Origin: Candidatus Tenderia sp.
Lineage (GTDB): Bacteria > Pseudomonadota > Gammaproteobacteria > Tenderiales > Tenderiaceae
DNA length: 64,000 nucleotides
NCBI GenBank assembly: GCA_031416075.1
Contig: JANOSY010000017.1
Coordinates: 32,001 to 96,000 of the forward strand
Reading direction: 5' to 3'
Below the pieces are notes generated by a model. That model worked only from the letters and a program-made list of their open reading frames with translations, had not been told where the DNA came from and did not search any database. A program made the position numbers and the translations under genes. This document shows, in pieces, positions 42,133 through 63,330 of this stretch. The stretch's first letter is position 1; every line of letters starts with the position of its first letter.

Positions 42133-42615
42133 TTATAGTGGTTTGGCAACCGCTAGGTCATACCCTACCCGTTGTGGATTGGAGGCTTTATTCTTCGCAT
42201 CAAAGTCACTGTAACTGATCATAACTTTTGAAAAACTGAGTGCAATATTCTCCACTGGCTCCCCTTCAGCACCGGCAGAGAGAATAAAACCACTGACCAG
42301 ACAATTCTCAAGCGTATAACTCATATATTCCTGCACCTTGCCTGCGCCGGTACGCACAAACTTGATCACGACGGTCTTGCCCGCTGCACCACTAACCGAC
42401 TCCTTGAACAACGAAGTAGTCGAGATATCTGTACGCTTGGTAACTTTCACTGCAGTAATGGTTGGGCGCGTCGCTTCACGGTTGGCCAGATTGCCCGCTT
42501 CCATGCTAACGTTACGCTTAATCTCAAAGCCCGCCATACTAAGTGCAATATGCCCTGCATAGCCGTCTGCCGTAACGTTCCCGTGAATTCCGTCGTACTT
42601 CATATATATAGACAT
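42133..42615 (-). CDS. hcp: Type VI secretion tube protein Hcp
   Basis: IYMKYDGIHG, TKRTD.ST..LF, YTLENCLVS, E.IALSFSKV and GYDL motifs; 160 aa. Confidence 0.9.
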   Translation of the reverse strand: MSIYMKYDGIHGNVTADGYAGHIALSMAGFEIKRNVSMEAGNLANREATRPTITAVKVTKRTDISTTSLFKESVSGAAGKTVVIKFVRTGAGKVQEYMSYTLENCLVSGFILSAGAEGEPVENIALSFSKVMISYSDFDAKNKASNPQRVGYDLAVAKPL

Positions 42616-46222: not shown

Positions 46223-47467
46223 CTACGGCGCCAACTGGGCCAGCCGTTGCTCAAAGTGACTCCGCAGCTGGTGGTAATTATCCATATCAGGAAACGCACG
46301 GCATAACGCCGCCGCAATCCGCAGCCCCTCGTCGTAGGCGTTGCGCGCCGCCTGCCACTGCCCCAGCGCCTCGGCCACGCCGCCCACTTTGTCGAGCGAG
46401 ACCGAGAGGTCGCGCAGCGCCTCGGGGGTCTCGCCCACGGCGGCCCGCACATCACGACTGATCTGGAGGCCCTCCTCATAGGCCTGAGCCGCCGCCTCCC
46501 ACCGCCCCAGCGCCTCGGCCACACGGCCCACGTTGTTGAGGGAGATGGAGAGGTCGCGCAGCGCCTCAGGGGTCTCGCCCACCGCGGCCCGCACATCACG
46601 TCTGATCTGGAGACTCTCCTCATAGACCTGAGCCGCCGCCTGCCACCGCCCCAGCGCCTGGGCCACACGGCCCACATTGTCGAGGGAGATGGAGAGGTCG
46701 CGCAGCGCCTCGGGGGTCTCGCCCACGGCGGCCCGCAGGGCGCGGGCGATGGACAAGCTGGCCTCTGCAATCTGCCCCGCCTTGGCATAACGCCCCCGGC
46801 GCAGACAGGCGGCGAGGGCCGCATCCCCCGCCAGCAGCACACCACGTTCCATCCCCCCTTTGGCAGAGGCCCGCTCCCACTCGGCAAGCTGGCTCTGTTC
46901 ATATTCGGTGAACGGAAACTCAGCCATCGCTGCCAGATCTGCGGGCGGTTCCTGCTCTGGGACAGTGGTGGCAGTGGTTGCCAATAACTCCGCTGAGCTA
47001 TCCAGACTAAGGTCGCGGATCGCCCAGAGATCGGGCACCAGCGCCTTGACCTGTTCCCGCTCGCTGGCGGGCAGTATCAAAATCAGGGGACGACTGAGGG
47101 TACGGCGCAGCTTTTCACGCTGTTCGTTGAGGCGCGCCAGAAAATTCAATCGCGCCGCCTGCCACTCATCACCGCTGTAAAGGCTGAGGTCGAGCCAGTG
47201 GGGGGCATCGGCATAAGAGTCGGGGCTCAACAACCGGGGCAGCACCTCGCTGGCCAGGGCGGCGGGGGCTTGAACTTCAAGAGAGCGCAACTGGGTAACC
47301 CTCATGCGGTAGATCTCCGCCAGCCGTCCACGAAAGATCTCCGTCACCCGTGGATCGGCATTGAAGATGAAGACAAGGGCGAAGTGGTCGGACCACTGGA
47401 GATGTTGCTTGAATCTCCGCCAGAGCTGCTCGCCGTCGTGGTTAAGAGCTGGTATTGCTGGCTGCAT
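46223..47467 (-). CDS. Protein with a degenerate NTPase-like N-terminus and C-terminal TPR-like repeats
   Basis: LNEQRE...PLILILP...PDLWAIR segment; three 48-aa repeats RDLSISLDNVGRVA.ALG.W.AA..YEE.L.I. Confidence 0.8.
   Translation of the reverse strand: MQPAIPALNHDGEQLWRRFKQHLQWSDHFALVFIFNADPRVTEIFRGRLAEIYRMRVTQLRSLEVQAPAALASEVLPRLLSPDSYADAPHWLDLSLYSGDEWQAARLNFLARLNEQREKLRRTLSRPLILILPASEREQVKALVPDLWAIRDLSLDSSAELLATTATTVPEQEPPADLAAMAEFPFTEYEQSQLAEWERASAKGGMERGVLLAGDAALAACLRRGRYAKAGQIAEASLSIARALRAAVGETPEALRDLSISLDNVGRVAQALGRWQAAAQVYEESLQIRRDVRAAVGETPEALRDLSISLNNVGRVAEALGRWEAAAQAYEEGLQISRDVRAAVGETPEALRDLSVSLDKVGGVAEALGQWQAARNAYDEGLRIAAALCRAFPDMDNYHQLRSHFEQRLAQLAP
46330..46770 (-). repeat. Three 144-bp tandem coding repeats
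   Basis: gagaggtcgcgcagcgcctc recurs at 46404, 46548 and 46692. Confidence 0.9.
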
Positions 47468-48788
47468 CGTCGACCGGGGTGGCTGGTATTGGTGGATATT
47501 GGCCGATCTCTTGCTCCAGCAATGGGTGGATGTCGTACCAGGGTTTGCCGTTGAGATAGTTCATGATGAGATTGGAGTCGAGAAAACGGGCCAGACGCGG
47601 CAGCTCGGCTACACTCTCCAGGGCTGTGTCCTTACAACGATGTATCTCCGCCAGCCAGCGGCCATCGTCCTTTGCTATGGGCAGCAGGCCACGCCGAATT
47701 TCGGACTCGGCATTTTCCAGCGTGACGTCTGTCACCAGGCGGTCAGCAGCGAGCATACAGGTGACCAGACACTCCCGGATGAGCCGGAAGAAATCCCTGA
47801 CATCACCGCCGGACGCTGCCGCCAGCCGGTCCAGCTGCTCTTTGGAAAAGACCTGCCCCCACCCGGCATAACGCCTGGCGATAATCTCGCGCATGATTTG
47901 CAGCCCCTGCTCATCCGGGAGACCATCGGCACAGCGCACATGGATGTTGGGCCAGGAGGTAACCGTATCACCGCCCATATTTCGCGCTGTGTTGGGCATC
48001 AGCGGAGTTAGGAATGGGGGGATGGTATAGACCAGATGGAGCAGATCAAAACGGAGGTTGGGTGCATGGCCGGAGAATAGGTTGACGATGCTGTTGTGCA
48101 CATCTGACGCTTCGGTGCCTACCCCGCGAATCTGTTCCATCGAGTCGACCAGTAAAACCACCTTTTTGTCGGGATCCCCGGCGCGCTTGCGTATCGCTTC
48201 AACCAGTTTAACCACATAGGCCCGCGCATCTTTTACGAGGGTGGTGACATGCCCTTTCAATGCATCCTGAAGCTGCTGTTTGAATGTCGGCTCGGTCTTG
48301 AGCTGGAGCGCCAAAGAGACGGGATCGGTGCCAACATTCAAACCATCAAGTTTTACCTCGGAGTTGAGAAACTGGACCAGCTGTTGCCAGTACTCGGCAA
48401 CAATCCCCCCAAACCCCTCATTTTCCCCTTCCGCCACCAGTGCCACCATGAGGGAGAGGATAAAATCACTGATATCCAGTGGTTTGGTCATGAGCACATA
48501 TTGAGTCATGTCCACCAGCACCACATGACAACCATCCTGTTCCAGCAACCCCTTCAACCGCTTGAGCTGTGTGCTCTTGCCATTGCCGCGAAAACCGGTC
48601 AGCAGGTTCACACTCTGCGACTCCGCCAGTTTGATGCTTATCTGCAACCGTCCGATGGGGTCTTTTTCCGGACACGTCTCGAAGATGGGTACGTAGTAAG
48701 AATCGTCAGGCTCCAGCGGCAGCGCGCCTGCCCCATTCAGGGTTTTATAAAACTTTTCCAGTTAACTGGCAGCGTGTTGTTGTTTCAT
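47442..48788 (-). pseudogene. P-loop ATPase (STAND/AAA-like) with in-frame TAA at codon 9
   Basis: Walker A GFRGNGKST, Walker B VLLVDSMEQ and ASGGDVRDF. The frame from ATG 48788 reads MKQQHAAS*LEKFYKTL... Confidence 0.75.
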
Positions 48789-50073: not shown

Positions 50074-51462
50074 ATGATCCGAGTCAGCGGTTTAACCAAA
50101 ATTTTCGCCACCGGCACCAAGGCCATCGATGATCTTTCGCTGGAGGTAAAACAGGGCGAGATTCTTGCCTTGCTCGGCCCCAACGGGGCGGGTAAAACCA
50201 CCACCATTCGGGTGTTATCGACCCTGAGCGGGTTTGACGAGGGCAGTGTCACGGTGGCGGGGCACGATGTTGATGTTGACCCGGAGGCAGTGCGCTGCGC
50301 CATTGGCTTGGTAGCACAACAGACCGGGGTTGATTACTTTCTGACCGGCCGCGAAAACCTGATAACTCAGGGTCACCTCTACCGCATGGGCAAGGCCGAG
50401 ATCGAAAAACGGATTGAGGAGCTGGCCAGCTATTTTGGCCTGACTGACGCCCTTGACCGGTTGGTGACCACCTACTCTGGCGGTATGCGCCGCAAACTCG
50501 ATATCGCCACGGCGCTGATCCACAACCCCACGCTCCTGTTTCTCGATGAGCCGACCCTGGGGCTGGATATCAAGAGCCGCCAGAGCCTCTGGCAGTACAT
50601 CAACAAACTCAACCGTGAGCAGGGGCTGACCATTCTGCTCACCACCCACTATCTGGAAGAGGCGGACCATCTCAGCCATCGGGTCGCCATCATCAGCCAG
50701 GGCAAGATCCAGGTGATCGATACCCCTCAGGCACTTAAAAACAGCATTCATGGGGATGCCGTGATGCTCACCTTTGCGGATCAGGGGCCCAACGTCGGTG
50801 ATTTCACCTTCGCCATGCACGAAGACCCCACGGTCCAGAATGTGGTGTGGCAGAACGACAATCTCTATGTCTATGTGGACAACGGTGGCGAAGCGGTGCC
50901 CCGTTTTGTGCGATTGGCCGAAGAGAAGGGACTGACCATCAAGTCACTGTCACTCGCCCACCCAACCCTGGATGACGTCTTCCTCAAATATACCGGCACC
51001 ACTCTGGAAGAGACCAAGGAGGAAGAGGGTGAGGAGTGGTGGCACCAGTGGGCCGGCAAAGGTGGCGGCGGCGGTGGCAAATGGCAGAAAAACTGGGAGA
51101 AGTGGCAGGGTCAGCTCGAAGAGAGTGGCTCTGATGAGGATAAGGCCGGTTGGCAGGCGCAGATGCAGAAGTGGCAAGGCGATGATGCAACCGCTGCGGT
51201 ACCTACAGCTACAATCACTCCCGTCGCCACATCAGTGACTCCAACACCGGCACAGCCAGAGGCAGCCCCAGCCAAACCGGGCGACTGGCAACAGTGGCAA
51301 CAGCAAGCCAATGCCAGCGGCACCCCTGTCGAAACACCTGAACACTATCGCGAAGAGGCGCTGAAACGGCGCGGCAACTGGCAGGCCGACGGCAAAGGCA
51401 TCCCTGAGCAGGGCGACTGGCTGGGCGGTCAGAACGCTGACAAAACCGATAACAATAAGTAG
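50074..51462 (+). CDS. DrrA-like ABC exporter ATP-binding protein with a ~150-aa W/Q/G-rich C-terminal extension
   Basis: GPNGAGKTT, YSGGMRRKL, FLDEPT and PTLDDVFLKYTG, followed by a low-complexity tail. Confidence 0.9.
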   Translation: MIRVSGLTKIFATGTKAIDDLSLEVKQGEILALLGPNGAGKTTTIRVLSTLSGFDEGSVTVAGHDVDVDPEAVRCAIGLVAQQTGVDYFLTGRENLITQGHLYRMGKAEIEKRIEELASYFGLTDALDRLVTTYSGGMRRKLDIATALIHNPTLLFLDEPTLGLDIKSRQSLWQYINKLNREQGLTILLTTHYLEEADHLSHRVAIISQGKIQVIDTPQALKNSIHGDAVMLTFADQGPNVGDFTFAMHEDPTVQNVVWQNDNLYVYVDNGGEAVPRFVRLAEEKGLTIKSLSLAHPTLDDVFLKYTGTTLEETKEEEGEEWWHQWAGKGGGGGGKWQKNWEKWQGQLEESGSDEDKAGWQAQMQKWQGDDATAAVPTATITPVATSVTPTPAQPEAAPAKPGDWQQWQQQANASGTPVETPEHYREEALKRRGNWQADGKGIPEQGDWLGGQNADKTDNNK

Positions 51463-51516
51463 CGCCTGGCCCCATGCCACCGCACCCCTCACACCGCATA
51501 ATCGAGAGAGAAAACT

Positions 51517-52284
51517 GTGTTAGCTGATACCTGGTACCTGTTTCTTAAATACACCAAGATCACCATGCGTATGCCGCTCTGGACGCTTTTTACGCTGATC
51601 CAACCCCTGTTATGGCTGCTGATCTTCACCCAGCTGTTCAAAAACTTTGTGCAGGCACCGGCACCCGGCTCTGGCGGCGGCAGCTACATCGACTTTTTTG
51701 TGCCAGGGGTATTGATCATGACGGCGCTGTTTGGCTCCTCCTGGTCAGGGGTCAGTCTACTGCGTGAGATCACCGCGGGCACCGTTGACAAGATGTTGGT
51801 CTCCCCCGTCTCGCGTGTTGCGATTGTCCTGAGCCGCGTCATGCACTCAGCAGTACAGGTGGTGATTCAGACGCTGATCATTCTGCTGGTGGCCTGGGCC
51901 ATCGGCGCCAATCTCAACCTTGGACCGGTCAATCTGTTTCTGGGAATGTTGAGCATATTCCTGCTTGGTGTGGGCCTTGCTGCACTCTCTAACGGCTTTG
52001 CCATCACCCTGCAACGTGAAGAGCCGCTGGTGATGATCGGCAACCTGATGACCCTGCCGCTGATGTTCCTCTCCACCGCCATGGTGCCCAAGCCCTTTAT
52101 GCCCGGCTGGATCGAGACCATATCACTCATCAATCCAATCACTTATGCGGTGGAGTCAGTGCGCGCCGTGATGATTGGCACCCCGGATTATCAGGCCTAC
52201 GGCTTTGGTCTGCTGATCATGGCCGTATTTGCCGGAGTATCCCTATCCTGGGCAGTCAGCGCCTTTAACGGATTGCGTGACTAA
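51517..52284 (+). CDS. ABC-2 type permease (DrrB-like)
   Basis: IQPLLWLLIF, YIDFFVPG and NPITYAVE motifs; about 6 TM segments. Confidence 0.9.
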   Translation: MLADTWYLFLKYTKITMRMPLWTLFTLIQPLLWLLIFTQLFKNFVQAPAPGSGGGSYIDFFVPGVLIMTALFGSSWSGVSLLREITAGTVDKMLVSPVSRVAIVLSRVMHSAVQVVIQTLIILLVAWAIGANLNLGPVNLFLGMLSIFLLGVGLAALSNGFAITLQREEPLVMIGNLMTLPLMFLSTAMVPKPFMPGWIETISLINPITYAVESVRAVMIGTPDYQAYGFGLLIMAVFAGVSLSWAVSAFNGLRD

Positions 52285-52347
52285 TACAGACTCGATGATG
52301 AGGGGCCGGAAGCACCTGCCCCCTCCCTATCACCAGAACAGTCCGTA

Positions 52348-55068
52348 CTAAAAGCTGTAACGAGCACTAAGGTTGATGCTGTTGCGGGTATAGCTGCCCA
52401 ACGAGCTGCTTTGAATCCCTTCAATAATCTGCAGCTGGTTGTAGACAAACCCCAGCGGTAGGCTGGAGCGCTGGATGGAGTAGTCATAACTACCCGAGAA
52501 GGTCAGCGCGCTGTCGTAACGGTAACTGACCCCCACGGCCGTCCCCAAACTCAGGTTGACACGTTTTTTCTGGAAGTTGGCATAAGAGTCAGGGTTGGTA
52601 TAGAGATAGAGGTTAATGTTGCCACTCAAATACCCAGACCATTTATCAGCCAACCGTTTATCTATCCGGCCATTCACTGCATGGCTGACATATGCATAGT
52701 CATTGCCCTGCCGCTTAAGATTTTGGTTAATCGCCAGGGTATAACCGTAGCTCAATGGCAGGCCATGCTCACCCAGGGTATTGGCGCTTATACCAAGGGT
52801 ATAGGTATTGGCATCAAAAAACGGGTTCTGCTGTGAACCAAAACCACGGTAACTGAAATTGGTCTGATAACCCGTGCCATCCCCCTGCCAGCCCACGCTG
52901 CCAAACAGGGTATCCGTGGTAGTACCACTCTGATTAGGCCTTAATACACTCGACTGACTGGCACGGTTAACCCCCAGACTCCACTGCTGCTCACGCCACT
53001 TAAACGCCAGGTTTGGCGTCATCGACAGGGTGAAAAAGTCGTATTGGCCTGCGTGGTAAACGGTGTAGTCAGGATTTACCCGGAGAGAAAACTGTAACCC
53101 CTTTTTAATCTTGTAGTTATAGGTGATGTTAGCCGATGTCTGAGTCCGGTATTCAAACAGTTTATTGGTGTAACCCACATTGGCGTTATCATCCACGCCT
53201 ACCGCGTAGGCAATCTGGTAACTCAGGCCATTGATGGTACGCTCCACCTGCTTAAGCCGTTCAGCGGCGGCGGTCAGGAGCCGTTGATCCTCGCTATTGC
53301 TCAGCAATACCTTGCGATACTCAACGATGGCCAGCGCCTCTTCCTCTTCCTGCTCTAACAACAGGCCAATATTAAAACGCGCGGCCATGTAGGTTGGCTC
53401 AATCTCAAGCAGTTTGTAGTAGTACTCTTTGGCGATTTTTGTATTCCCTTGGCGTGAAGAGACCAAGGCCAGATTCCAAAACACCTCACGGTCACCACCA
53501 AACTGGCTCTCAACACTGGAAAAGGCACTCATCGACTCCTCCAGCCGCCCCTCTCTGGAGTGGTGCTTACCCAACGCCATCAACACCCGTTTTTGGATCT
53601 CGGCCACCTTTGCATCATCATCAAACATTGTTGCCAATGCCCGCTGGTAATAGTCAACGGCCTGGGCCAGATCATTTTCACGTTCCGCAATCTCTCCTAG
53701 CAGAACATAGGCAACCCCTTGGCGTGCATCACTTTCGACCACTTTCAGATACTGCTCTTTAGCCTCAGCCAATTTGCCCTGTGTTTGCAAAATACTGCCC
53801 AAGCCAAGCCGCGCCTGTGCATCGCCCGGATCCTGCTCCAGCCTTGCCATCAACGCACGTTTATCCGCCAGCAGCTTACGTACACTCTGCAACCGCCCGC
53901 CAATCTGCGGGTCAAGACGACCGTAAACATCATTCACCATCTCAGACATCTGGCCATCATTATCATTGGCCAGCACATACTCAAGCTCAGCCACCGCCTC
54001 AATAATCCGTTTGGAATCAAGATGCAGCAGCCCCAGGCGAAAGTGGGCTTCAAGATTATCAGGATCTACCTTGAGTACCCGCTCAAACGCATTAGTGGCA
54101 ATATCAAGCCTGCCCGCCACCTGGCTGAGACGGGCAATATTCCCATTCACCACGATATTCATCGGATCAAGCGCCTGCACCTCCAGGAAGGTCTGAAGTG
54201 CCTGTTCATTTTTACCCTCCTGCAACTGCCGGACACCACGAATCAAACCAAGCTTGATGTTCACCTGCCGCACTAGATCATCTTTAGCCCCCTTTTGCAG
54301 GACCAACAGAAAATTGCTCTCCGCCAAATCAATATTTCGCATCGCCTCATACACATTCGCCAGATAGAAATAGGCCAACGGATTGTCAGGCGCCAGCAAA
54401 ACAATGTTTTTATAGCTCTGCTCAGCCTGTTCAAGCAGACCCGCACGGACAAAGGTGGCACCAATGACATGCAATAAAGAGGCGTCAGTTGGATATTTGC
54501 CCTGCAAGGCGCTGCCCAGCTCCAATACAGCATCCTGATCGCGCTGTTTTTCAGCACGACTCAACAGCAATAGCCCTAACGATCTATCCGCACGCGCCGC
54601 CGCCAGTGAATCCGGCGGCTCACCGGCATGTTCCAAAACATATTGATACTGAACAATGGCATCATCATCACGGCCAATCTCTTCCAGCGCTTTGGCATAC
54701 GCAAGCCGTGGCATCGGGGCGTTTGGCTCAAGCGCCACCGCCTTCTGTATATATTCCATCCCATCGATATAATTTTTATTCTGAAAACTAATAATGGCCA
54801 GGCGATAAAGCGCTTCCACCTGATTTGGACTAATACGCAACAACTCAATAAACGCCTGGGCGGCATCATCCTGACGGTTTTCAAGAAATGCCTTACGTCC
54901 CGCTTCAAGCAACTGTGACGCTGGCCCCGTCTGCTGGGGTTCAGAAAAACTCTCGCCAAAATCAGCCATCTGGGCCAACACACAGGGCGCAGAGAAGAGC
55001 ACCACAGCACCCAGCAAACATCTTAATGGCCGTGGCGCGGTAAATTTAAGTAACAGCGGACGCCACAT
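52348..55068 (-). CDS. Exported TPR-repeat protein with C-terminal outer-membrane beta-barrel
   Basis: Signal peptide, about 560 aa of TPR helices, then amphipathic beta strands ending in SARYSF. Confidence 0.8.
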   Translation of the reverse strand: MWRPLLLKFTAPRPLRCLLGAVVLFSAPCVLAQMADFGESFSEPQQTGPASQLLEAGRKAFLENRQDDAAQAFIELLRISPNQVEALYRLAIISFQNKNYIDGMEYIQKAVALEPNAPMPRLAYAKALEEIGRDDDAIVQYQYVLEHAGEPPDSLAAARADRSLGLLLLSRAEKQRDQDAVLELGSALQGKYPTDASLLHVIGATFVRAGLLEQAEQSYKNIVLLAPDNPLAYFYLANVYEAMRNIDLAESNFLLVLQKGAKDDLVRQVNIKLGLIRGVRQLQEGKNEQALQTFLEVQALDPMNIVVNGNIARLSQVAGRLDIATNAFERVLKVDPDNLEAHFRLGLLHLDSKRIIEAVAELEYVLANDNDGQMSEMVNDVYGRLDPQIGGRLQSVRKLLADKRALMARLEQDPGDAQARLGLGSILQTQGKLAEAKEQYLKVVESDARQGVAYVLLGEIAERENDLAQAVDYYQRALATMFDDDAKVAEIQKRVLMALGKHHSREGRLEESMSAFSSVESQFGGDREVFWNLALVSSRQGNTKIAKEYYYKLLEIEPTYMAARFNIGLLLEQEEEEALAIVEYRKVLLSNSEDQRLLTAAAERLKQVERTINGLSYQIAYAVGVDDNANVGYTNKLFEYRTQTSANITYNYKIKKGLQFSLRVNPDYTVYHAGQYDFFTLSMTPNLAFKWREQQWSLGVNRASQSSVLRPNQSGTTTDTLFGSVGWQGDGTGYQTNFSYRGFGSQQNPFFDANTYTLGISANTLGEHGLPLSYGYTLAINQNLKRQGNDYAYVSHAVNGRIDKRLADKWSGYLSGNINLYLYTNPDSYANFQKKRVNLSLGTAVGVSYRYDSALTFSGSYDYSIQRSSLPLGFVYNQLQIIEGIQSSSLGSYTRNSINLSARYSF

Positions 55069-55973
55069 CAGAAATAGACATTCATCTTAAATAGCAATTT
55101 CCAGCCATCAAAATTAAGGCGAATGGTCGAATAATCCTCAATCGAGTCAAAATCATGCCGTAAATATTGAAGGTCACCCGAACCCGCACTGACCCGTTGA
55201 GGCAACCAAAATGTCAGGTTATCCGTCGGCAAGAAGTTGGTTGTTGACGCTCCATCACGTAACGTAGGGCGCTTAAGCCCGATCACGTACGACGCATCCA
55301 CCCCAACAGAGAGCCAATCGTCAAAAAAATAGTTCATGCCAAAACCGGGTTGCAGCATTAACAACCCCGTCGATTGCGATTGTAGGATTGTGGTTTTTTT
55401 CACCCCCGCCGCCTTTCCTGCCGTAAAGAGAAAGACCATATCCTCGCGGAAATCGATATCAAACACCTCATTTAACGTTAACCGGTAATAGAGTCTGAAC
55501 TTGTTATCCACATCCACAATGTTCCGCTTCAGGCCAAAATAGAACTCATTGTATGAGAGCTTGGCCACCCGCTCATTAACAACATCGGCCGGGTCTCCCT
55601 GAACATAAAAACCACCCGAAGCAACCGCACGCGATGTCGCCTCCCAGTTCCCCCCCCCAAATACCACTGCATACTCATCATTCAGCGTCCACTGAAACTC
55701 CAGCCCGCCATTTGTACCCAACTCCAGTGGTGGCAACGGGTTTTGAAAATTCAAAGGGACCTGAATATTGTTCCCCGAACCGGCAAACAGAGAAGCAAAG
55801 CCGCCAATGGACGACTTAAACTCCGCATCGTTTAAATCCTCCAAAGCAGGCCGATGTACCCCTAAATAGAACCCCACACCCAACCCTTTTTCAGGGGCCG
55901 CCATAACCTGTGAGCCAAACAGGCACACCGCCAACAGCAACAAAAGCTTTGTTAGCCCGCGCATTGGCAACAC
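55068..55973 (-). CDS. Putative outer-membrane beta-barrel protein
   Basis: Signal peptide, alternating aromatic strands, ends FKMNVYF; TGATG coupling to the downstream gene. Confidence 0.7.
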   Translation of the reverse strand: MLPMRGLTKLLLLLAVCLFGSQVMAAPEKGLGVGFYLGVHRPALEDLNDAEFKSSIGGFASLFAGSGNNIQVPLNFQNPLPPLELGTNGGLEFQWTLNDEYAVVFGGGNWEATSRAVASGGFYVQGDPADVVNERVAKLSYNEFYFGLKRNIVDVDNKFRLYYRLTLNEVFDIDFREDMVFLFTAGKAAGVKKTTILQSQSTGLLMLQPGFGMNYFFDDWLSVGVDASYVIGLKRPTLRDGASTTNFLPTDNLTFWLPQRVSAGSGDLQYLRHDFDSIEDYSTIRLNFDGWKLLFKMNVYF

Positions 55974-58424
55974 CTATACTGACTTTGAGGATTCATTGCT
56001 ACGCAGAAACAGCGGCAGTATCAGCAGCGCCGCAATACAACTGACAACCATATAGAGCACCACAAATACGCCCAATTTGACATGCGGAGGGAACTGTGAC
56101 AAAAACAGGACGGAAAACCCCGCCACTACCACCACCGCATTAAAGACAATCGTACGCCCGACACTTCGGAGCGTTTCAGAAACTGCCATTTCGTGGGACA
56201 ACCCTGCCTTGCGCTCTGCCGTATAACTAAAAACATAATGGATGGCGTAATCAACCCCTACCCCTACCGCAATACCCGCCGCCAGTACGCTGGAAACATC
56301 CACCGGAATACCTAACCAACCCGCTCCGCCACCCACTAGCAGGCTGGCAATCAGCACGGGCAGCACCACCGCAGCCCCCACATAAAACGAACGAAACCAA
56401 AGTACCGCCAGTATAAAAATGGCCACCTTCGAAAACAGCAACGACCAGATCTGGCTATCGATCAACATCTGCGCCCAGATATAGGAGTTATTGGCTGACC
56501 CTGCAAAATTCACCTGAACACTCTTGTCGGTAAAGTTCTGAGCAACATATTCATTAATATTATGAATGATGTTTTTTAAATGGAGCGTCTGGTCAGTCTT
56601 GATGGAGACCGTGATATTGGCATGCTGATAGTTAAAGTCCACCACCTCATCCAGAAGCTCCGGCTGTCCAGAGACCGAGTAGAGATAGAGCCCTTCAGCA
56701 ATCTCGGCCTGACTCTTCGGCAAGGTGTAGTAGGCCTCATCCATGGAGTGGAGCGTCTTGTTCAGGCTTTTAAGATAGTCCACCACAGAGACTGTATCAC
56801 CCACATACTCAAGGCTCTCGGCGTATTGCTGCAATCCGTCCATCTTCGCCAGCAACTCTGGTGACTTAAGGCCGTCAGGCGCAGCAGTCTCCACCACAAT
56901 ATTCAGAAACTGTGAGCCATCAAAACGCTCGTTCACCAGGGCCGTTGACTGGGCAACTTCACTATCTGCCCTAAAATCACTCAACCAGCTGGAGTTAACC
57001 TCAAGCTTCAACACCCCCGCACTTATCACCAGCACCACCACTGCCACCGCCGCCGATGACAGCTTGCGGTTGCCCATTAAAAACTGCCCCAGCTTCACCA
57101 GCACGACCGTCATCACATCCTGCTCTGCACGTACCCGCATCGAACGTTTGCGGGAGTGATAACCAGGCACCGCTGGTTTCATGATAGTAAGCATGGCAAC
57201 TGCCATTGTCATCGTCAGCAACCAACAGAAGGCAATGCCCAGGACCGTAAACAGACCAAAGATTTTAAAGGGAGGCATTTCAGCCATTAACAGAGAGAGA
57301 AAACCAACTGCTGTGGTCACAGACGTTGTTACTAACGGTGGCCCCAGCTTTGCCATCACCTCCGAAATAATCTCGCCGCCACTACGGTATGGATTTTCCA
57401 GCACCTTATTATAATAGTGGCTCAACAGATGTACCGAATCACCAATCCCCACCGCCACCAGGATCACTGGCAACATGGTTGAAATGGTATACAGCGGCAC
57501 ATCCAACAACACCATCGCGCCCAGCGTCCAGATAATCGCCCCTGCCATCACCAGCAGCGGAATCAGAATGCCACGCCCGGTCTTGAAGATCAGAAACAGC
57601 GCCACCGCCATTACCGCAATCAGCAGAGGCACCATCATCTTCATATCGGACATGGCGCTAAGCCCCGATGTCACTTCAATAACAGGACGTCCCGCCAGAT
57701 AGATCACATCACCATTATCAAGAACAGCCGCCTCAATCTCACCACTCTGCTGCTGCCACTCCTGATCACCTTTCCCCCACTCACCATCCTGCTGCCAGTC
57801 ACCACTGGTCTCGCCACTCCACCAGCTATTCCCTGTTGTACCACCACCTTCAGCCGCAATAACGCCTTTTATCTGCCAAAACGTCTGATAACGGTTGGTG
57901 GCTCCCTCTTTAAGCTTGGCGCGAATCATCGCCGCACTGCCATCCGCCGAGACTATATTGCCCACCAGGATGTCGGCATGCTGCTCAACTTTATCTTTAA
58001 GCTTTTTAATCTCATCATCGGTGGCCGTGCCGCCCTCCATCAGGCGCACAGCCCCCATGCTTTCATCATTCCCTTCAAATACAGTCGCTGTTGACAGTGA
58101 GGCCACATCCAGAACACGGCTGGCAATTACCCCAGGCAGCTCAGCCACCTTCTCACTGATCCTGGCAATACGCTCCAGCGTCTCTTTGTTATAAACACCC
58201 TTGTCATCATTTTTAACAATGATCACAATTGCATCTTTAGCCCCAAACAGATGCTCAATCTTCTCATCATATTGAATAGCCGGATGCCCTTTGGGCATAT
58301 AGACACGGGCATCAGTCTCCCAACGCAGCTGGCCAAGCTGCATCAACATAAACACGGTTATGGCCGCAATTATTGCAAGAATAATCTTCGGATACCTGAC
58401 CACAAAACCGTATAACAACTTCAT
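55974..58424 (-). CDS. MMPL/RND family transporter with a W/G/Q-rich insertion
   Basis: Two repeats of (1 TM + periplasmic domain + 5 TM); VGIGDSVH, TSVTTAVGFLSL and GVGVDYAIH motifs. Confidence 0.9.
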   Translation of the reverse strand: MKLLYGFVVRYPKIILAIIAAITVFMLMQLGQLRWETDARVYMPKGHPAIQYDEKIEHLFGAKDAIVIIVKNDDKGVYNKETLERIARISEKVAELPGVIASRVLDVASLSTATVFEGNDESMGAVRLMEGGTATDDEIKKLKDKVEQHADILVGNIVSADGSAAMIRAKLKEGATNRYQTFWQIKGVIAAEGGGTTGNSWWSGETSGDWQQDGEWGKGDQEWQQQSGEIEAAVLDNGDVIYLAGRPVIEVTSGLSAMSDMKMMVPLLIAVMAVALFLIFKTGRGILIPLLVMAGAIIWTLGAMVLLDVPLYTISTMLPVILVAVGIGDSVHLLSHYYNKVLENPYRSGGEIISEVMAKLGPPLVTTSVTTAVGFLSLLMAEMPPFKIFGLFTVLGIAFCWLLTMTMAVAMLTIMKPAVPGYHSRKRSMRVRAEQDVMTVVLVKLGQFLMGNRKLSSAAVAVVVLVISAGVLKLEVNSSWLSDFRADSEVAQSTALVNERFDGSQFLNIVVETAAPDGLKSPELLAKMDGLQQYAESLEYVGDTVSVVDYLKSLNKTLHSMDEAYYTLPKSQAEIAEGLYLYSVSGQPELLDEVVDFNYQHANITVSIKTDQTLHLKNIIHNINEYVAQNFTDKSVQVNFAGSANNSYIWAQMLIDSQIWSLLFSKVAIFILAVLWFRSFYVGAAVVLPVLIASLLVGGGAGWLGIPVDVSSVLAAGIAVGVGVDYAIHYVFSYTAERKAGLSHEMAVSETLRSVGRTIVFNAVVVVAGFSVLFLSQFPPHVKLGVFVVLYMVVSCIAALLILPLFLRSNESSKSV

Positions 58425-58437
58425 CTATGCCATTCCC

Positions 58438-59943
58438 CTAGAAAGAGTATTTAAACTCAAAAAATACCCTGTCGTTATCATGAAAATTCCCAACAAACTG
58501 GGCCTGCTGAATCGCCGGATTAAACTGGCCCTGCTCATTAATATTGGATGTTCCGAAGTCAGACTTTGGCCCTTCAAAAATATCCATGCCCACCGCCACC
58601 TGAAAGCGATTTGTCACATGAAAGGTCACCTTTGGCTTTAAAAAACTCTCATTCATGGTCTGCAAATAGATCCACAACGCCTGCACAGTCATCGAGTACG
58701 CAGGAAACTCCCTTCGTACAAACATATTGAACGATGTGTCCACCTGCTTCTGAATAATTGATTTCTCATAATCCAGAATGATCCACTGCATGCCCCCCAG
58801 CGCCACATCCCAGCCGAGCAAATTGACATCAACCCCGCCTCCCCAACGGATATGATTCTTCTGAACCTCACCATTAGAGTCCACATACCCATCACCATCA
58901 GCATCGGCGACATTGCTCAACCCAAAAAACTTATCCCTAACGTAGGCCAGCTCACCCTTAAGAATATACCCCCCCATCTGCCGCACTGCCGTCGCACCAA
59001 AAATGGAGAGCCTGGAATATGTTGGATAAAAGATCGGTGTTTCACCGCCAATTTTGACACTTCTGAATACCACAGGAAAATCATCCCACGTATAAAAATA
59101 GCTGAGGGATAACTCAGTGTCCGCAACATCTGCAGACCACCTCATGCCCACCTCAGAATTTTCCAGCCTCCAGGACTCAGGCCGTCTGGTACCAGGCACC
59201 TCTTGTAACAACTCCCACTCTGAACCCGGCGGTGCCGGTTTATGAAATTGCAAATCAGGGATCCAGACAAACTGCAGATCACCCCTCTTTGTATAATAAT
59301 CCAGCTTGGCGCTCCATAATGAAATACGATAATCCAACAGATCAGGCAGAATCAGCTCCCTAAAATCCATCGGGTTCATCTCATCAACAATACGAACCCC
59401 CTCCAGTACACCCCACACAATATACTGTTTGCCCAAGCGCATATCCCAACTATCGGCCGCCACATCCAGATAAAGCTCACGAATCGCAGCGACAGGACTG
59501 TCTTTTTCTTGGGGAAGGTTTTCAACAAAGGCAAGCGGCTCTTCTGAGTTGCGCTCCAACCTCGCAGAGATCGTCTCATAGTTAAACAGGTCGTAGGCAT
59601 GATCATAATATGCCCAACCCGTAAAATTAAACTTAACATTGTCTGTCAGAGGGTATTTACTGTTTAAATAGGCAATATTACGAAGCTTCGTGATCGCACG
59701 TGGCTCACGAATTCGATAGGCAATTTCATTTTTGAGGTAACCCGTCAGCTCTAACGCCGACCAGAGGGTTTCAGAAGTGGCATCTGTTTCCACCTCAACA
59801 GTCTCGGCAACATCAGGCTCGACACTGTTTGCAAACACGGAACCAAAATCAGATGGCGGCGGAGCCTGCTGCGCCAACACAGAACAGAAGGGCATTGGAC
59901 CGAAAAAAACAATGACTAACAACCACAGTTTGTGCACACCCAA
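58438..59943 (-). CDS. DUF1302-like outer-membrane beta-barrel protein
   Basis: RELYLD, RLGKQYIVWG, NPMD and C-terminal NDRVFFEFKYSF motifs. Confidence 0.75.
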   Translation of the reverse strand: MGVHKLWLLVIVFFGPMPFCSVLAQQAPPPSDFGSVFANSVEPDVAETVEVETDATSETLWSALELTGYLKNEIAYRIREPRAITKLRNIAYLNSKYPLTDNVKFNFTGWAYYDHAYDLFNYETISARLERNSEEPLAFVENLPQEKDSPVAAIRELYLDVAADSWDMRLGKQYIVWGVLEGVRIVDEMNPMDFRELILPDLLDYRISLWSAKLDYYTKRGDLQFVWIPDLQFHKPAPPGSEWELLQEVPGTRRPESWRLENSEVGMRWSADVADTELSLSYFYTWDDFPVVFRSVKIGGETPIFYPTYSRLSIFGATAVRQMGGYILKGELAYVRDKFFGLSNVADADGDGYVDSNGEVQKNHIRWGGGVDVNLLGWDVALGGMQWIILDYEKSIIQKQVDTSFNMFVRREFPAYSMTVQALWIYLQTMNESFLKPKVTFHVTNRFQVAVGMDIFEGPKSDFGTSNINEQGQFNPAIQQAQFVGNFHDNDRVFFEFKYSF

Positions 59944-59963
59944 TCACCACGTCCCTGTCTTGA

Positions 59964-60401
59964 TCAAATAGCGGCTTTACACACATGACATAGCATGACA
60001 GGTCGGGCAGCTCCAAACCCCAAAGTAACCTCTTCGCCAGCCAGCAAGTCTACACCACAACCCATACACAGCGCCGGTTTATTTAACACCACACACCCCC
60101 ATCCCAGCACCGAATCAAAACGATCCACGGAGCGCATCCCGGCTGACTCACCTGTCGACAACACGGGCTGCGGCAACACCTCGCTTTCCCCCTCCTTAAA
60201 CGACTCCTCAAGAATATTACGAATCAAAATCGAAATAGGAATCCCCAACACTTCAGCGCGCTGCATAATACGATCACGCAGCTCTTTGGGCACCCTAGCC
60301 CCCAAGTATCCCTCTTTACGTTTCATTGCCATCGCAACGACCTCATCACGCCTGGCCATTGCCTCATTCCGCATTGATTTTGTCACCGCAACCATCCTCA
60401 A
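59964..60401 (-). CDS. Ribbon-helix-helix DNA-binding protein with C-terminal CxxC...CxxC zinc finger (start may be downstream)
   Basis: YLGARVPKELRDRI..RAEVLGIPISILIRNILE; CMGC and CHVC. Confidence 0.7.
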   Translation of the reverse strand: MRMVAVTKSMRNEAMARRDEVVAMAMKRKEGYLGARVPKELRDRIMQRAEVLGIPISILIRNILEESFKEGESEVLPQPVLSTGESAGMRSVDRFDSVLGWGCVVLNKPALCMGCGVDLLAGEEVTLGFGAARPVMLCHVCKAAI

Positions 60402-60412
60402 TCGTTCACAAT

Positions 60413-60450
60413 GTCATACACACGTTATACATCAAAGTGAGGCGCGTCAA
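60413..60450 (-). promoter_or_regulatory. Candidate sigma70 promoter overlapped by a direct repeat
   Basis: TTGACG-17 nt-TAACGT; TGTATAAC and TGTATGAC repeated with an 11-bp period. Confidence 0.45.
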
Positions 60451-60468
60451 ACAATGCTTTCATAAAAC

Positions 60469-60497
60469 AAAACGCCAGCCTGAAATCTGGCTGGCGT
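60469..60497 (-). terminator. Intrinsic terminator
   Basis: acgccagcc...ggctggcgt stem with a T-run on the minus strand. Confidence 0.75.
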
Positions 60498-60524
60498 CAT
60501 AACAAAACGGACCACAACAATCCC

Positions 60525-61334
60525 CTACGGCCCCTTCTTCAGCTCACGCTCAGAAAACTGCCTATCCTCCAAACCAACACCAAACTTAACACCCGTCACT
60601 TCAAACACTGACTTATGCTTAGTCTGATAATTCTCCACCTCAACCCGATCCCAGGCCCATGCACCACCCACCTGCTGCCACGACAACACCTGAGTCTTCA
60701 GCAAACTCCCCTGCGGATCGTAATACTCCATCTTAGCCTTATAGCAACTATTCCAGTCAGGCGCTTTGGCATACCAGGAAATTTTCTTGCTATATTGTGG
60801 CCGCGCCTCCTTAGGAGTGCTTTCAACCACATGATATTTCACCCCGCCAGTCTCCTCAACACGCAACAATGTGTGCACATCCGCCGCCAGAACGCGCTCC
60901 TCAATGTCACCATAAGTAAGATCAGAACCCAAAAAGCTGTCCCCTGGATCCCGCACTGAAACCCTGCGAATCTTCCTCAACTGTGGCAAATACAACCATT
61001 GATCCGCCAATTTCCCAGAACTGGCAGTATATCCCCAGCGCATAAAACCGGTCCCTTTCGCGTCAGGAGGGAATTCCGTATACAAAACCATCTTATCTAA
61101 AACGCCTTCTTTGCCGTGGTAGTTTTTCCACAAACGTGCATAGATATTCTTACGTTCATTCTCATCTTTATCAATAAGAGCGATAGACAAACGTGACAAC
61201 TGATCCTCACCCGGGTTTTTATATTCACAGTTTTTCACAACATCGCCACCAAGCAAATCAGCAGCCAGAGCCACCCCAGTCAATGGAAACATCAAAACCG
61301 TCACAAACACAGAATGCATCCACCCAAAGTTCAT
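60525..61334 (-). CDS. LolA-like outer membrane lipoprotein-sorting protein
   Basis: PPDAKGTGF, DQWLYLPQLRKIRRV, SFLGSDLTYGD and FSEREL motifs; GGAGG RBS. Confidence 0.85.
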   Translation of the reverse strand: MNFGWMHSVFVTVLMFPLTGVALAADLLGGDVVKNCEYKNPGEDQLSRLSIALIDKDENERKNIYARLWKNYHGKEGVLDKMVLYTEFPPDAKGTGFMRWGYTASSGKLADQWLYLPQLRKIRRVSVRDPGDSFLGSDLTYGDIEERVLAADVHTLLRVEETGGVKYHVVESTPKEARPQYSKKISWYAKAPDWNSCYKAKMEYYDPQGSLLKTQVLSWQQVGGAWAWDRVEVENYQTKHKSVFEVTGVKFGVGLEDRQFSERELKKGP

Positions 61335-61405
61335 ACAACACCTCCACATCACCTTTGTGTAAAACCATCACCCAATGCAACAACCCACCAGCAAACATAC
61401 AACAC

Positions 61406-61435
61406 AAAAAAAGAGGGGCTTGCGCCCCTCCTTTC
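61406..61435 (-). terminator. Intrinsic terminator
   Basis: gaggggc-ttgc-gcccctc stem followed by a T-run on the minus strand. Confidence 0.8.
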
Positions 61436-61461
61436 AAATCACAACATCTAACAATAAAATA

Positions 61462-62418
61462 CTATGGCCAAGGCTGGAACGGGTCGCTGATAGCCCCCGT
61501 CGTTGCACGAGCACCCCAAACGTTGGTATCCCACGCAATAGCCGCCATGTTAGTCAAGCTAAAGGTAGAGATAAAGTCATTGGCAGCAGTGGTTTTATTG
61601 TCATATGAAGTAAAGCCAAACGTCTGGCCAACGATAGTGCTCAAGTCCTGACCAATCCACACGGCCTGGACTCTATCACCCTTAGTACCACCATTACCCT
61701 TGACTGTGTCATTAGTCCACGTCATCACCAAGTTGGCTGGCGAAGCCGGAAGAGTCACAGTAGATTTACCAGCCACCGGATTAGAAACAATACGTGCATA
61801 ATCTCCAGACAGATCAACCAGCACAAAATCCTGCTTGTCCGTACCTTGTATAGGCACATAAGCAGTAATCTTCATCCCAGAAGCTGTAACGTCTGCGCCG
61901 TTATTCGTTGAGGCATCACCTTCTTGACGGAAAATAAAATCCGTTTGGAAATTATCAAACGTATCCTTCAAGCCTTGTGTCAACTTCAAACTATCTCCCG
62001 CCCAACCTGAGCTCAAGGTTGTGGACGCTTTAAAAGTAGTGGTTGCACTTACCTGAGAAATACGTTGCTTATCGGCTATACCAGTCACATTACCTGTACG
62101 AACAAAGCTCTCATCAGCAAAAACCAGAGCGTCGAGGGCCGTGGCATTTGCAGCAGTTGCGTTATTTTCCGTAATGATTGTCTGGAAGTACTGCTGTCCT
62201 GTACTGGTTTCAGTAACCATACGCTGATAGAAACCAAGATCGGTCATCGCCGTACCACAGCTAAAACCAGCCAAGGCACCAGCGCCGCACGCCGCACCAG
62301 CTATCGTACCGTTATTTACGGTCCATGAATCAAAGGCGGGCGCTGCCGCCAGCACAGAGCCGGAAAGTACCAGTGCTACAGCACCGGCCGAACTCGCAGC
62401 TTTATAAGGTTTACTCAT
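61462..62418 (-). CDS. Secreted protein of unknown function (A/T/G/S-rich, beta-rich)
   Basis: AGGAGG RBS, signal peptide ending VLA, one Cys pair, C-terminus DPFQPWP, own terminator. Confidence 0.85.
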   Translation of the reverse strand: MSKPYKAASSAGAVALVLSGSVLAAAPAFDSWTVNNGTIAGAACGAGALAGFSCGTAMTDLGFYQRMVTETSTGQQYFQTIITENNATAANATALDALVFADESFVRTGNVTGIADKQRISQVSATTTFKASTTLSSGWAGDSLKLTQGLKDTFDNFQTDFIFRQEGDASTNNGADVTASGMKITAYVPIQGTDKQDFVLVDLSGDYARIVSNPVAGKSTVTLPASPANLVMTWTNDTVKGNGGTKGDRVQAVWIGQDLSTIVGQTFGFTSYDNKTTAANDFISTFSLTNMAAIAWDTNVWGARATTGAISDPFQPWP

Positions 62419-62697
62419 TTTGAAGCCTCCTGATCTTTTTTTAAACATTTGCAGAGACACATCCATCTCTCCCAGCAAAAATCACCCTACTTACTCCACA
62501 ATAATACGTATATCACCTATTCAGTACCCGCGTCAATCGCGGTAAAATCACAAACAGTACAAAAACACCCTTCCTCAATGAATGACAGCTACAAAATGCC
62601 ACTCTCAATCCCTTACAGATACTCAGGCCACATCACAAAACATTTCCTTCTGTACGGATATCGGCCATTGAACAGTCGCACTTTAGTACTTTACACT

Positions 62698-63330
62698 CTA
62701 AACCCAATGTCTTTTGTGAAAATTCATCAACACCAAGTTATTCTGCGTTGCCCCGTAATCAACCATAGCAATTGATGCCGGGTCAATACATAGCTGCCTA
62801 TAGGAGGAGATGGGCATGCCAAGTGCCTCAGATAGCAGAACCCTAATCGGCCCAACATGTGCAACCACAACAACCGTCTCACCACGATGTCGCGCAGCCG
62901 CTTCACGAACAAACGGCACAACCCTGTCAGCAAGATCGTAAACCGACTCCCCACTCATCGGTTTAAAAGCAGCTTGATCACTTTTCCACTCTTGATACTC
63001 CACGGCAAAATCACGCTCTATCTCGTGGAAATACAACCCTTCCCACACACCAAAGCGGCGCTCACAGAGCGACCCATCATAAACCACGGCAGAACCAGCG
63101 CTTCCTGACAACAAGATATCAGCCGTCATTTTTGTACGCAAAGAAGGGCTTACATAGAACGTTGCCGGACCCAGTCCACGCAAACATTCCTCTGCCTGCC
63201 ACGCCTGGGACATCCCCCTCTCATTAAGCGGCGGATCCTCAACCTCATCACAATAGATCTTATCCGTTGGAAAATCAGTCTCTCCATGACGAACAAATAC
63301 AACCCTGGTGCTGCGCTCTTTCTCTCTCAC
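62698..63330 (-). CDS. Histidine phosphatase family protein (CobC/GpmB-like)
   Basis: VRHGET, SPSLR, ERRFGVWEG, GES and VAHVGPI motifs. Confidence 0.88.
   Translation of the reverse strand: MREKERSTRVVFVRHGETDFPTDKIYCDEVEDPPLNERGMSQAWQAEECLRGLGPATFYVSPSLRTKMTADILLSGSAGSAVVYDGSLCERRFGVWEGLYFHEIERDFAVEYQEWKSDQAAFKPMSGESVYDLADRVVPFVREAAARHRGETVVVVAHVGPIRVLLSEALGMPISSYRQLCIDPASIAMVDYGATQNNLVLMNFHKRHWV

Follow-up and report, generated by a model that had tools for sequence, protein, structure and literature searches.

What might a bacterium move across its envelope with a locus that encodes two inner-membrane transporters, a putative periplasmic carrier and three outer-membrane barrels? Such a locus is found in a stretch of 64,000 nucleotides from Candidatus Tenderia sp., called the window below, which is positions 32001-96000 of contig C17 in a 3.49-Mb genome of 99.98% completeness. 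Judged from the families of its proteins, the cluster of nine genes is a variant of the AmeABCD-type cassette, which combines a DUF1302 barrel, a protein of the LolA superfamily and an RND pump of the HAE3 type. Beyond the AmeABCD parts, the variant gains a ribbon-helix-helix (RHH)/zinc-ribbon regulator, an orphan small barrel (barrel301) translationally coupled to a porin with tetratricopeptide repeats (TPR-porin), a convergent DrrAB-type ABC-2 exporter with a tryptophan-rich tail, and an orphan secreted protein (sec318) with its family. The reading we favour, with a probability of roughly 0.45, is that the cluster encodes a housekeeping exporter which carries an amphiphilic or hydrophobic constituent across the cell envelope, of which that constituent, a lipid or something glycolipid-like, forms part. 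Three features are added here: a Trp-rich link between the ABC exporter and the MMPL pump, a phyletic triad of barrel301, sec318 and the Trp-rich tail, and a detachable pair of sec318 and LolA-like genes. The nine genes, with their positions in the window, are the following.

61462-62418, minus strand: sec318, secreted protein of 318 amino acids (aa) from ATG; orphan, with a signal peptide
60525-61352, minus strand: LolA-like carrier, 275 aa; PF17131
59964-60401, minus strand: RHH protein with a C-terminal CxxC...CxxC zinc ribbon, 145 aa; weak CopG/Arc matches
58438-59943, minus strand: DUF1302-like outer-membrane barrel, 501 aa; PF06980
55974-58424, minus strand: MMPL/HAE3-type RND inner-membrane pump, 816 aa; PF03176
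55068-55973, minus strand: barrel301, orphan small outer-membrane beta-barrel, 301 aa; no Pfam match
52348-55068, minus strand: TPR-porin (TPR-barrel), 906 aa; TPR families and a modelled barrel
50074-51462, plus strand: DrrA-type ABC ATPase, 462 aa, with a Trp-rich tail; TIGR01188
51517-52284, plus strand: ABC-2 (DrrB-type) permease, 255 aa; PF01061

Core proteins and their known counterparts

Which known system does the cluster resemble? In AmeABCD of Castellaniella defragrans, and in the cofit DUF1302/DUF1329/BNR/RND (COG1033) cassettes of Shewanella, Kangiella and Pseudomonas, a DUF1302 barrel, a periplasmic LolA-superfamily protein and a HAE3/MMPL-type pump are likewise encoded together, and the proposed role is likewise the movement of hydrophobic molecules or of an envelope component. 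Deletion of AmeABCD lowers monoterpene tolerance and impairs the export of dye and hydrophobic compounds (PMC6394551), homologues, for which export of a cell-wall component has been suggested, are cofit in several bacteria (bioRxiv 10.1101/072470), and the homologues of P. putida have been co-folded as barrel/carrier and carrier/propeller/pump complexes (10.1101/2020.07.04.188060; PMC10866462). The window's version also differs from these. The Ycf48-like/BNR propeller (COG4447) of the AmeABCD type has no match in the locus, in a search that covered the locus genes and not the rest of the genome. The sec318 protein is of propeller-like size and all-beta, but it matches no family and hhalign found no internal repeat in it. 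The DUF1329 protein of the AmeABCD type has 451 aa against 275 aa for the window's LolA-like protein (PF17131), and the window's DUF1302 match is partial. A preliminary description of this DNA had proposed a dedicated and undescribed trans-envelope export machine. Such a machine is still the best reading, but "undescribed" fits it less well than was supposed there, since the core is of the AmeABCD type (PMC6394551; bioRxiv 10.1101/072470). In the literature no paper was found on a DUF1302/LolA-like/RND cassette with extra barrels.

The assignments of the core proteins are as follows. The LolA-like protein matches PF17131 at 1.9e-44 (151.9 bits) and, over residues 72-149 only, DUF1329 (PF07044) at 7.1e-08 (32.6 bits, cut-off 23.1). 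A signal peptide is present and a lipobox cysteine absent, with N-termini aligned across orthologues, and the protein is probably a soluble periplasmic carrier. The DUF1302-like barrel has a signal peptide and the C-terminus ..FKYSF, and matches PF06980 at 2e-13 (50.6 bits, cut-off 23.2), with only profile positions 91-210 of 541, in the N-terminal part, being covered. The MMPL protein matches PF03176 at 1.1e-26, above the cut-off, and also a sterol-sensing domain. Its proton-relay residues are intact: transmembrane helix (TM) 4 carries GIGDSVH and TM10 carries GVGVDYAIH, both Asp residues are kept in 9/9 orthologues, and the Tyr adjacent in TM10 in 8/9, with Phe in one. The hopanoid transporter HpnN was tried and rejected, with 98.2 bits against a cut-off of 751.85 for TIGR03480 and 28.2 against 1100 for NF052374, and squalene-hopene cyclase (SQHop_cyclase_C) has no match in the 99.98% complete genome. 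The possibility, left open by the preliminary description, that the locus is a characterised hopanoid operon can thus be dismissed.

The first gene of the operon encodes the RHH protein, which matches CopG_antitoxin (0.0026, 18.9 bits, cut-off 28) and Arc (0.067, 13.5 bits, cut-off 20.4) only weakly. The RHH block and the four cysteines (CxxC...CxxC) are kept in 9/9 orthologues, and the gene lies upstream of the DUF1302 gene in 10 of the 12 operons found at class level; the protein is presumed to be the regulator of the five-gene operon. Two further, simpler LolA-like cassettes without the extra parts occur in the genome of the window (G000:C18:4257-9158 and G000:C73:6503-11471). One consists of an MMPL (815 aa), a LolA-like protein and a 552-aa protein, the other of an ABC ATPase, a 790-aa permease, a LolA-like protein and a DUF1302-like protein of 387 aa.

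Gene order and transcription units

How are the nine genes organised? All of them exist as the preliminary description had them, and so do the spacing of 13 nt between the DUF1302 and MMPL genes, the abutting MMPL and barrel301 genes (0 nt) and the TGATG overlap of barrel301 and the TPR-barrel (-1 nt). The other gaps are 20 nt from RHH to DUF1302, 123 nt from the LolA-like gene to RHH and 109 nt from sec318 to the LolA-like gene. The ABC pair is convergent on the minus-strand genes, and the stop codons of permease and TPR-barrel are 63 nt apart. Terminator-like hairpins lie directly 3' of sec318 (61435-61408) and directly 3' of the LolA-like gene (60498-60471). The seven minus-strand genes are co-directional and the last four of them tightly coupled, as had been described, but the two hairpins suggest three transcription units rather than one: sec318, the LolA-like gene, and a five-gene operon from RHH, as its first gene, to the TPR-barrel. 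Since the region has 16 terminator-like sites where shuffling gives 11.9, which is not above chance expectation, this assignment is no more than suggestive. The three barrels all end in an aromatic motif resembling a beta-signal (..YSF or ..VYF), and the C-terminus of sec318 reads ..FQPWP.

Conservation and co-occurrence

Is the cluster a peculiarity of one genome? In the order of the window's genome, the barrel301 profile has matches in 12 of the 17 genomes, among them all seven of high quality; in each of these seven the cluster is conserved, in one copy and surrounded by housekeeping genes. At the level of the class, 400 evenly sampled genomes were scored, and 23 of them, from 10 families, were barrel301-positive. 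For synteny, 15 stretches were fetched from 13 barrel301-positive genomes of other families. DUF1302, MMPL and barrel301 genes stand together in 12 of the 15, and the TPR-barrel comes next wherever the DNA continues, so that the reading of the preliminary description, which a lack of co-occurrence in other genomes would have refuted, stands on this count. The convergent ABC pair is adjacent in 8 of these stretches, the ATPase also in 5/5 further genomes, and the permease adjoins the TPR-barrel in 12 loci. The sec318 profile is found in 22 of the 400 genomes; all 22 are barrel301-positive, and G390 (90% complete) alone has barrel301 with no sec318 match. A query with the 61-aa Trp-rich tail returned 24 of the 400, namely all 23 barrel301-positive genomes and one borderline case (E = 9.9e-4). 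Genome G067 carries its tail-bearing ATPase on another contig, and the gene is absent from the 6.7 kb fetched beyond its TPR-barrel. When genome contigs were scanned with the sec318 alignment, 16 loci were obtained: eight have the order sec318-LolA-RHH-DUF1302-MMPL, followed by what the fetched DNA still contains, three, on truncated contigs, have the same beginning, and five hold sec318 relatives in other contexts.

Could the cluster serve to expel or take up hydrophobic compounds of external origin, as has been proposed for AmeABCD and the P. putida DUF1302/DUF1329 genes, rather than to build the envelope? The core families are identical to those of the AmeABCD type, and the phenotypes of relatives point in this direction (PMC6394551; 10.1101/2020.07.04.188060; PMC10866462). 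In Thalassolituus oleivorans, too, an MMPL, a LolA-like protein and a downstream porin-like barrel are linked as in the window; there TOL_3187 is an MMPL-LolA fusion induced by C28 alkane, and it has none of the window's extra parts (PMC6304351). We consider this explanation improbable, however, as no catabolic genes lie nearby, the cluster is the single conserved copy amid housekeeping genes noted above, and the two simpler LolA-like cassettes of the genome could fill such roles. Envelope biogenesis is favoured over catabolism because the locus sits amid housekeeping genes in chemolithoautotroph-like genomes.

The ABC exporter and the Trp-rich segments

Does the ABC pair belong to the same system? 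The ATPase matches TIGR01188 (drrA) with 325.9 bits (cut-off 312.45), ABC_tran and DrrA1-3_C (PF13732), and the permease matches ABC2_membrane (PF01061) at 2.2e-30 with 106.2 bits. With this ATPase subfamily and an ABC-2 permease, the pair is assigned by sequence to the DrrAB-type ABC-2 exporters. From about residue 315 the tail of the ATPase is rich in Trp, and the motif EEWW.QWAGKGGGG.KW.K.W is present in 5/5 and in 8/8 orthologues. A Trp/Gly/Gln-rich insert is found in the MMPL pump as well, at about residues 191-235 in the first large loop, between TM1 (about 14-32) and TM2 (from about 262), and is present in 9/9 orthologues. In orthologues from other families, polar Trp-rich windows recur in 8/8 ATPases and 12/12 MMPL proteins; the W/Q-rich inserts of the preliminary description are real features. 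How rare are they? All six-frame open reading frames (ORFs) of the genome that encode at least 100 aa were scanned for 40-aa windows in which 4 or more residues are Trp and 26 or more are polar. Three of the 6400 ORFs qualify, and the top two are the ATPase (7 Trp) and the MMPL (5 Trp) of the window. The ATPase tail is cytoplasmic and, by standard RND topology, the MMPL loop would be periplasmic; the two segments may be capture sites for the same substrate on both faces of the membrane. In two loci (L026 and L027, genomes G004 and G005) the ATPases are 511 and 640 aa long, and their tails hold several tandem units of about 26 residues (W.AEE.A.WQ..QW..EEM..WQ.Q).

There are precedents for the joint use of such parts. 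The mycobacterial lipoprotein LppX has a LolA-like fold, and in the export of phthiocerol dimycocerosate (PDIM) a pump of the MMPL family, an ABC-2 exporter of the DrrAB type and a LolA-fold carrier act on one lipid. The joint action of MmpL7, DrrABC and LppX on PDIM is described in PMC11539658. The mycobacterial system comes from another phylum with another kind of envelope, lacks outer-membrane barrels and is encoded beside genes of lipid synthesis; the analogy is one of parts and not of orthology. In E. coli, the LolA-like chaperone and the RND-family transporter among ApeL/ApeM/ApeN were proposed to place an aryl-polyene lipid in the outer membrane, akin to what is considered for the window (PMC8253772). 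The ape genes lie inside a biosynthetic cluster and have a LolB-like protein instead of barrels, no ABC-2 pair and no TPR-porin.

The outer-membrane barrels

What may the two extra barrels do? The window's copy of barrel301 has no Pfam or NCBIfam match. In its family 6 of 19 members match OMP_b-brl (PF13505) weakly, and its language-model features (Atlas) are akin to those of OMP_b-brl clusters; the C-terminus is ..MNVYF. Its gene abuts that of the MMPL and overlaps the start of the TPR-barrel. A profile search of the PDB with barrel301 gave no matches, and hhalign against the barrel of the TPR-porin gave a probability of 2.4%. The TPR-porin consists of about 580 aa of periplasmic TPR repeats, matching many TPR families, and a C-terminal beta-barrel of about 300 aa. 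The 306 C-terminal residues (600-906), modelled with AlphaFold2 (AF2), form a closed beta-barrel with a mean confidence (pLDDT) of 83.2 and a predicted TM-score (pTM) of 0.73. Foldseek matches this barrel to generic porins with TM-scores of 0.46-0.58. In VIA-align the barrel of PgaA (4y25_A) comes out on top (Z 17.0, root-mean-square deviation 3.7, 238 residues), tied within about 1 Z with CymA (16.4), MtrB (16.2) and others, and BcsC (14.6) and AlgE (13.3) follow.

Two known families were tried for the TPR-porin and rejected. Membership in the PgaA/BcsC families fails, since TIGR03939 scores 41.6 bits against 366.65 and BcsC 40.1 against 858, both on the TPR part only, and no synthase is present in the locus. 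The identity with Slam, that is, the type XI secretion system (T11SS), fails as well. PF04575 (DUF560/SlipAM) does not match residues 608-906 even at E<=10, and its search of the genome returned one weak match elsewhere (C18, 20.6 bits, below the cut-off). TPR_Slam on the TPR-porin reaches 33.7 bits, just below its cut-off of 35.2. In general architecture Slam is similar: there too a TPR region precedes a barrel of about 300 aa, and a candidate for the secreted cargo is encoded close by (PMC8406197; PMC5449769). The window's protein differs from Slam in having no DUF560/SlipAM match, a far longer TPR arm and a candidate cargo that is not a lipoprotein.

Might the substrate then be a polymer? 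The long periplasmic TPR arm followed by a C-terminal porin barrel is also the architecture of PgaA, BcsC and AlgK/AlgE, and a polysaccharide or glycoconjugate exporter could be assembled from a TPR-porin of this kind and an ABC-2 exporter like Wzm/Wzt or KpsMT, with MMPL, LolA-like and DUF1302 proteins as a neighbouring lipid module. The structural ranking of PgaA, BcsC and AlgE is in line with it, and the permease has a weak match to KpsM (1.5e-4). Segments rich in Trp are well suited to stacking against carbohydrates, and those of the window would here bind sugar chains. But neither a glycosyltransferase nor a synthase is encoded in the locus or next to it, the match to PgaA is within about 1 Z of unrelated porins, and the PgaA and BcsC scores, far under their cut-offs, come from the TPRs. 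The TPR-porin, moreover, is translationally coupled to the operon of the MMPL pump. Polymer export therefore seems to us quite unlikely.

The secreted protein sec318 and its LolA-like neighbour

What is sec318? A start at TTG (62478) would yield 338 aa; 17 homologues begin at the methionine of MSK.., which supports ATG. The protein is beta-rich, with a signal peptide, conserved Cys44 and Cys54 and no lipobox. It matched no Pfam or NCBIfam model, and none of 103 family members matches Pfam. A PDB profile search gave one match to a DnaJ-like chain (E = 0.15, profile positions 3-46), which was taken as chance, and no solved relative. An AF2 model from 18 sequences gave no usable fold (pLDDT 49.8), a language-model feature search (Atlas) returned unnamed clusters only (0.90-0.91), and hhalign against the LolA-like family found no relation (probability 0.9%). 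One homologue, with 40% identity, is Tel_02725 of Candidatus Tenderia electrophaga; the main text of two Tenderia papers (PMC5371394; 10.1101/2022.05.06.490989) makes no mention of loci near Tel_02725, MMPL, LolA or DUF1302. A profile search found 437 representatives at E<=0.001, some of them with 2-3 tandem domains. The family is multi-copy, with 1-6 matches per genome; its N-terminus, with the signal peptide, and a number of motifs further inside are conserved around an indel-rich middle. In the genome of the window, a cluster of secreted proteins at G000:C20:19525-25210 shares AEF.LNF just after the signal peptide and adjoins a weak match to the sec318 profile; it includes a Gly/Trp-rich protein of 320 aa, which is the third match of the genome-wide Trp scan.

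The tightest linkage of sec318 is to the LolA-like gene and not to the TPR-barrel. In 16 of the 17 loci having both, sec318 lies just upstream of the LolA-like gene on the same strand, within 2.8 kb. The pair is on a different contig from the operon in three genomes (G067, G084 and G116), where the two genes are still mutually adjacent. It is split by about 6 kb in G252, and in G053 sec318 lies about 4.6 kb away; between the LolA-like gene and this distant sec318 (L038, 16000-19900), ORFs resemble transposase fragments by eye. In five loci of four genomes (L011, L012, L014, L047 and L048), an O-methyltransferase of 336-337 aa (PF08100 and PF00891) stands between sec318 and the LolA-like gene. 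Its homologue in the genome of the window, with 40% identity, is at G000:C16:14029-15012 next to a contig end, where the context is lost. The preliminary description had pointed out that no lipid enzymes are adjacent. This holds for the window's locus; relatives, for their part, carry the O-methyltransferase inside theirs.

Could sec318 be the cargo rather than a helper? In this case the LolA-like protein would chaperone sec318-family proteins, the small barrel and the TPR-porin, with their Slam-/PgaA-like architecture, would bring them to the surface, and MMPL and DUF1302 would be a lipid partner or a separate module. The persistent adjacency of sec318 and the LolA-like gene off the operon in G067, G084 and G116 agrees with this, as do the terminator-like hairpin of sec318's own, the barrel301 gene in every sec318-positive genome of the 400, and a family that is multi-copy with a conserved N-terminus and motifs around an indel-rich middle. 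In one locus (L049), a sec318-like gene is even divergent beside a second barrel301/TPR-porin pair that lacks an MMPL gene, and the TPR_Slam score falls just short of its cut-off. On the other side, there is no PF04575 match in the TPR-barrel, sec318 lacks a lipobox, the majority of its copies are far from any barrel gene, the fold of sec318 was not obtained, and G390 has barrel301 with no sec318 match. We regard protein export as doubtful, yet as having a real chance. Nothing supports a sheath, an S-layer or a fibre in particular, the surface structures suggested in the preliminary description.

A possible mechanism

How would a lipid exporter work with these parts? Gene content, conservation, co-occurrence, the barrel fold and the intact proton-relay residues are shown by the data; starting from the favoured reading of an envelope exporter, we infer the direction of transport, the order of hand-off, the class of substrate and the role of the Trp-rich segments as follows. 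The DrrAB-type ABC-2 exporter would use ATP to move the substrate out of the inner membrane or to its other side, and the proton-driven MMPL/HAE3 pump would extract it on the periplasmic side, with the Trp-rich segments as possible points of capture. The soluble LolA-like protein, together with sec318 encoded next to it, might shield the substrate across the periplasm, and the DUF1302-type barrel with the coupled barrel301/TPR-porin pair might insert it into the outer membrane or let it pass through. The RHH/zinc-ribbon protein would control the five-gene operon. Since neither the locus nor the DNA next to it holds a gene of lipid or glycan synthesis, the substrate cannot be named.

Several observations weigh against this scheme. 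That very lack of a synthesis gene is one of them, and the scheme offers no explanation for the role of sec318. Two family assignments fall short of their cut-offs: the permease reaches 123.2 bits for DrrB (TIGR01247, cut-off 223.05), and the best NCBIfam match of the MMPL pump, HAE3 (TIGR00921, 4.3e-74), has 249.9 bits against 351.9. The Trp-rich segments are of low complexity and would lie on opposite sides of the membrane, so that a shared role for them can be inferred at most. The homologues in P. putida are required for growth on Tween 20 (PMC10866462), which bears on the direction of transport. The barrel301/TPR-porin pair occurs without an adjacent MMPL gene in three loci (L049, L050 and L041), and in one genome (G418, 91% complete) no close MMPL or LolA orthologue was found, the identities being 33% and 38%. 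Finally, most of these genomes have the genes for TsaD, MoaE and a histidine phosphatase on the flanks of the locus, in one and the same order. Part of the conservation of the locus is therefore due to inherited gene order, and synteny and phyletic co-occurrence could in large part go back to common descent. The 10 positive families may form a single clade, in which case the counts of co-occurrence are not independent. In one of the MMPL-less loci (L041, G400:C49:17200-37100), barrel301-like and DUF1302-like genes stand next to genes for two TPR proteins of great length, 1222 aa in one case and more in the other.

Taken to its end, the argument from inherited order leads to a different explanation, that there is no integrated machine and that three or four independent units (sec318 with the LolA-like gene, the RND/barrel operon and the ABC pair) are neighbours by descent. 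Beside the conserved flanks, the separation of units in G067, G084 and G116 and the terminator-like sites between units fit this view. However, the units co-occur even when unlinked, the Trp-rich feature common to the MMPL pump and the ABC ATPase is otherwise nearly unique in the genome, and the last four genes of the operon are translationally coupled. Mere neighbourhood has, in our opinion, a small chance of being the whole explanation. At the other extreme, all nine proteins might be one machine, of a kind without earlier description, that builds a lipid-protein surface coat specific to Tenderia-like mineral- and electrode-oxidising bacteria and their relatives. The matching Trp-rich segments of ABC exporter and MMPL pump would then capture the same lipid-linked molecule on either face of the inner membrane, the LolA-like protein and an obligate sec318 would ferry it, and a complex of three barrels would display it. 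We find this elaborate version unlikely.

Why is the locus of concern beyond this genome? Cassettes of DUF1302, LolA-like and RND proteins are widespread and have phenotypes in several bacteria, and they are still without a mechanism or a substrate. The variant described here is unusually informative: it adds two undescribed families of outer-membrane barrels and an undescribed family of secreted proteins, and ties an ABC exporter to the cassette by a sequence signature accessible to mutation. Testable handles on how hydrophobic material that is neither lipopolysaccharide nor lipoprotein reaches the surface of Gram-negative cells are the segments rich in Trp, the pair of sec318 and LolA-like genes, which can be detached, and the pair of barrels, which can be separated. 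The order is known for drawing electrons from electrodes and minerals, a way of life in which the outer surface is important.

Composition and surroundings of the locus

The neighbours of the locus in the window are housekeeping or unrelated genes. In the minus-strand locus (window 52000-63000), G+C is 0.46-0.53 and G+C at third codon positions (GC3) is 0.45-0.58, under the ABC genes (GC3 0.69-0.71) and the upstream flank; this low-G+C locus nonetheless keeps a conserved place across families. The effective number of codons (Nc) tracks GC3 genome-wide, so codon bias is uninformative on expression. The regions upstream of sec318, of the LolA-like gene, of RHH and of the ABC gene have in common only T-rich 10-mers and two terminator palindromes, and a shared operator was not found among them. 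An apparently orphan Hcp gene lies at 42133-42615 on the minus strand (T6SS_HCP, 1.6e-30), with no other type VI family among the scanned neighbours. Also on the minus strand, at 46223-48647, two overlapping genes encode a TPR protein of 414 aa and an AAA-like ATPase of 401 aa; their region has a G+C of 0.60-0.66, above that of its surroundings.

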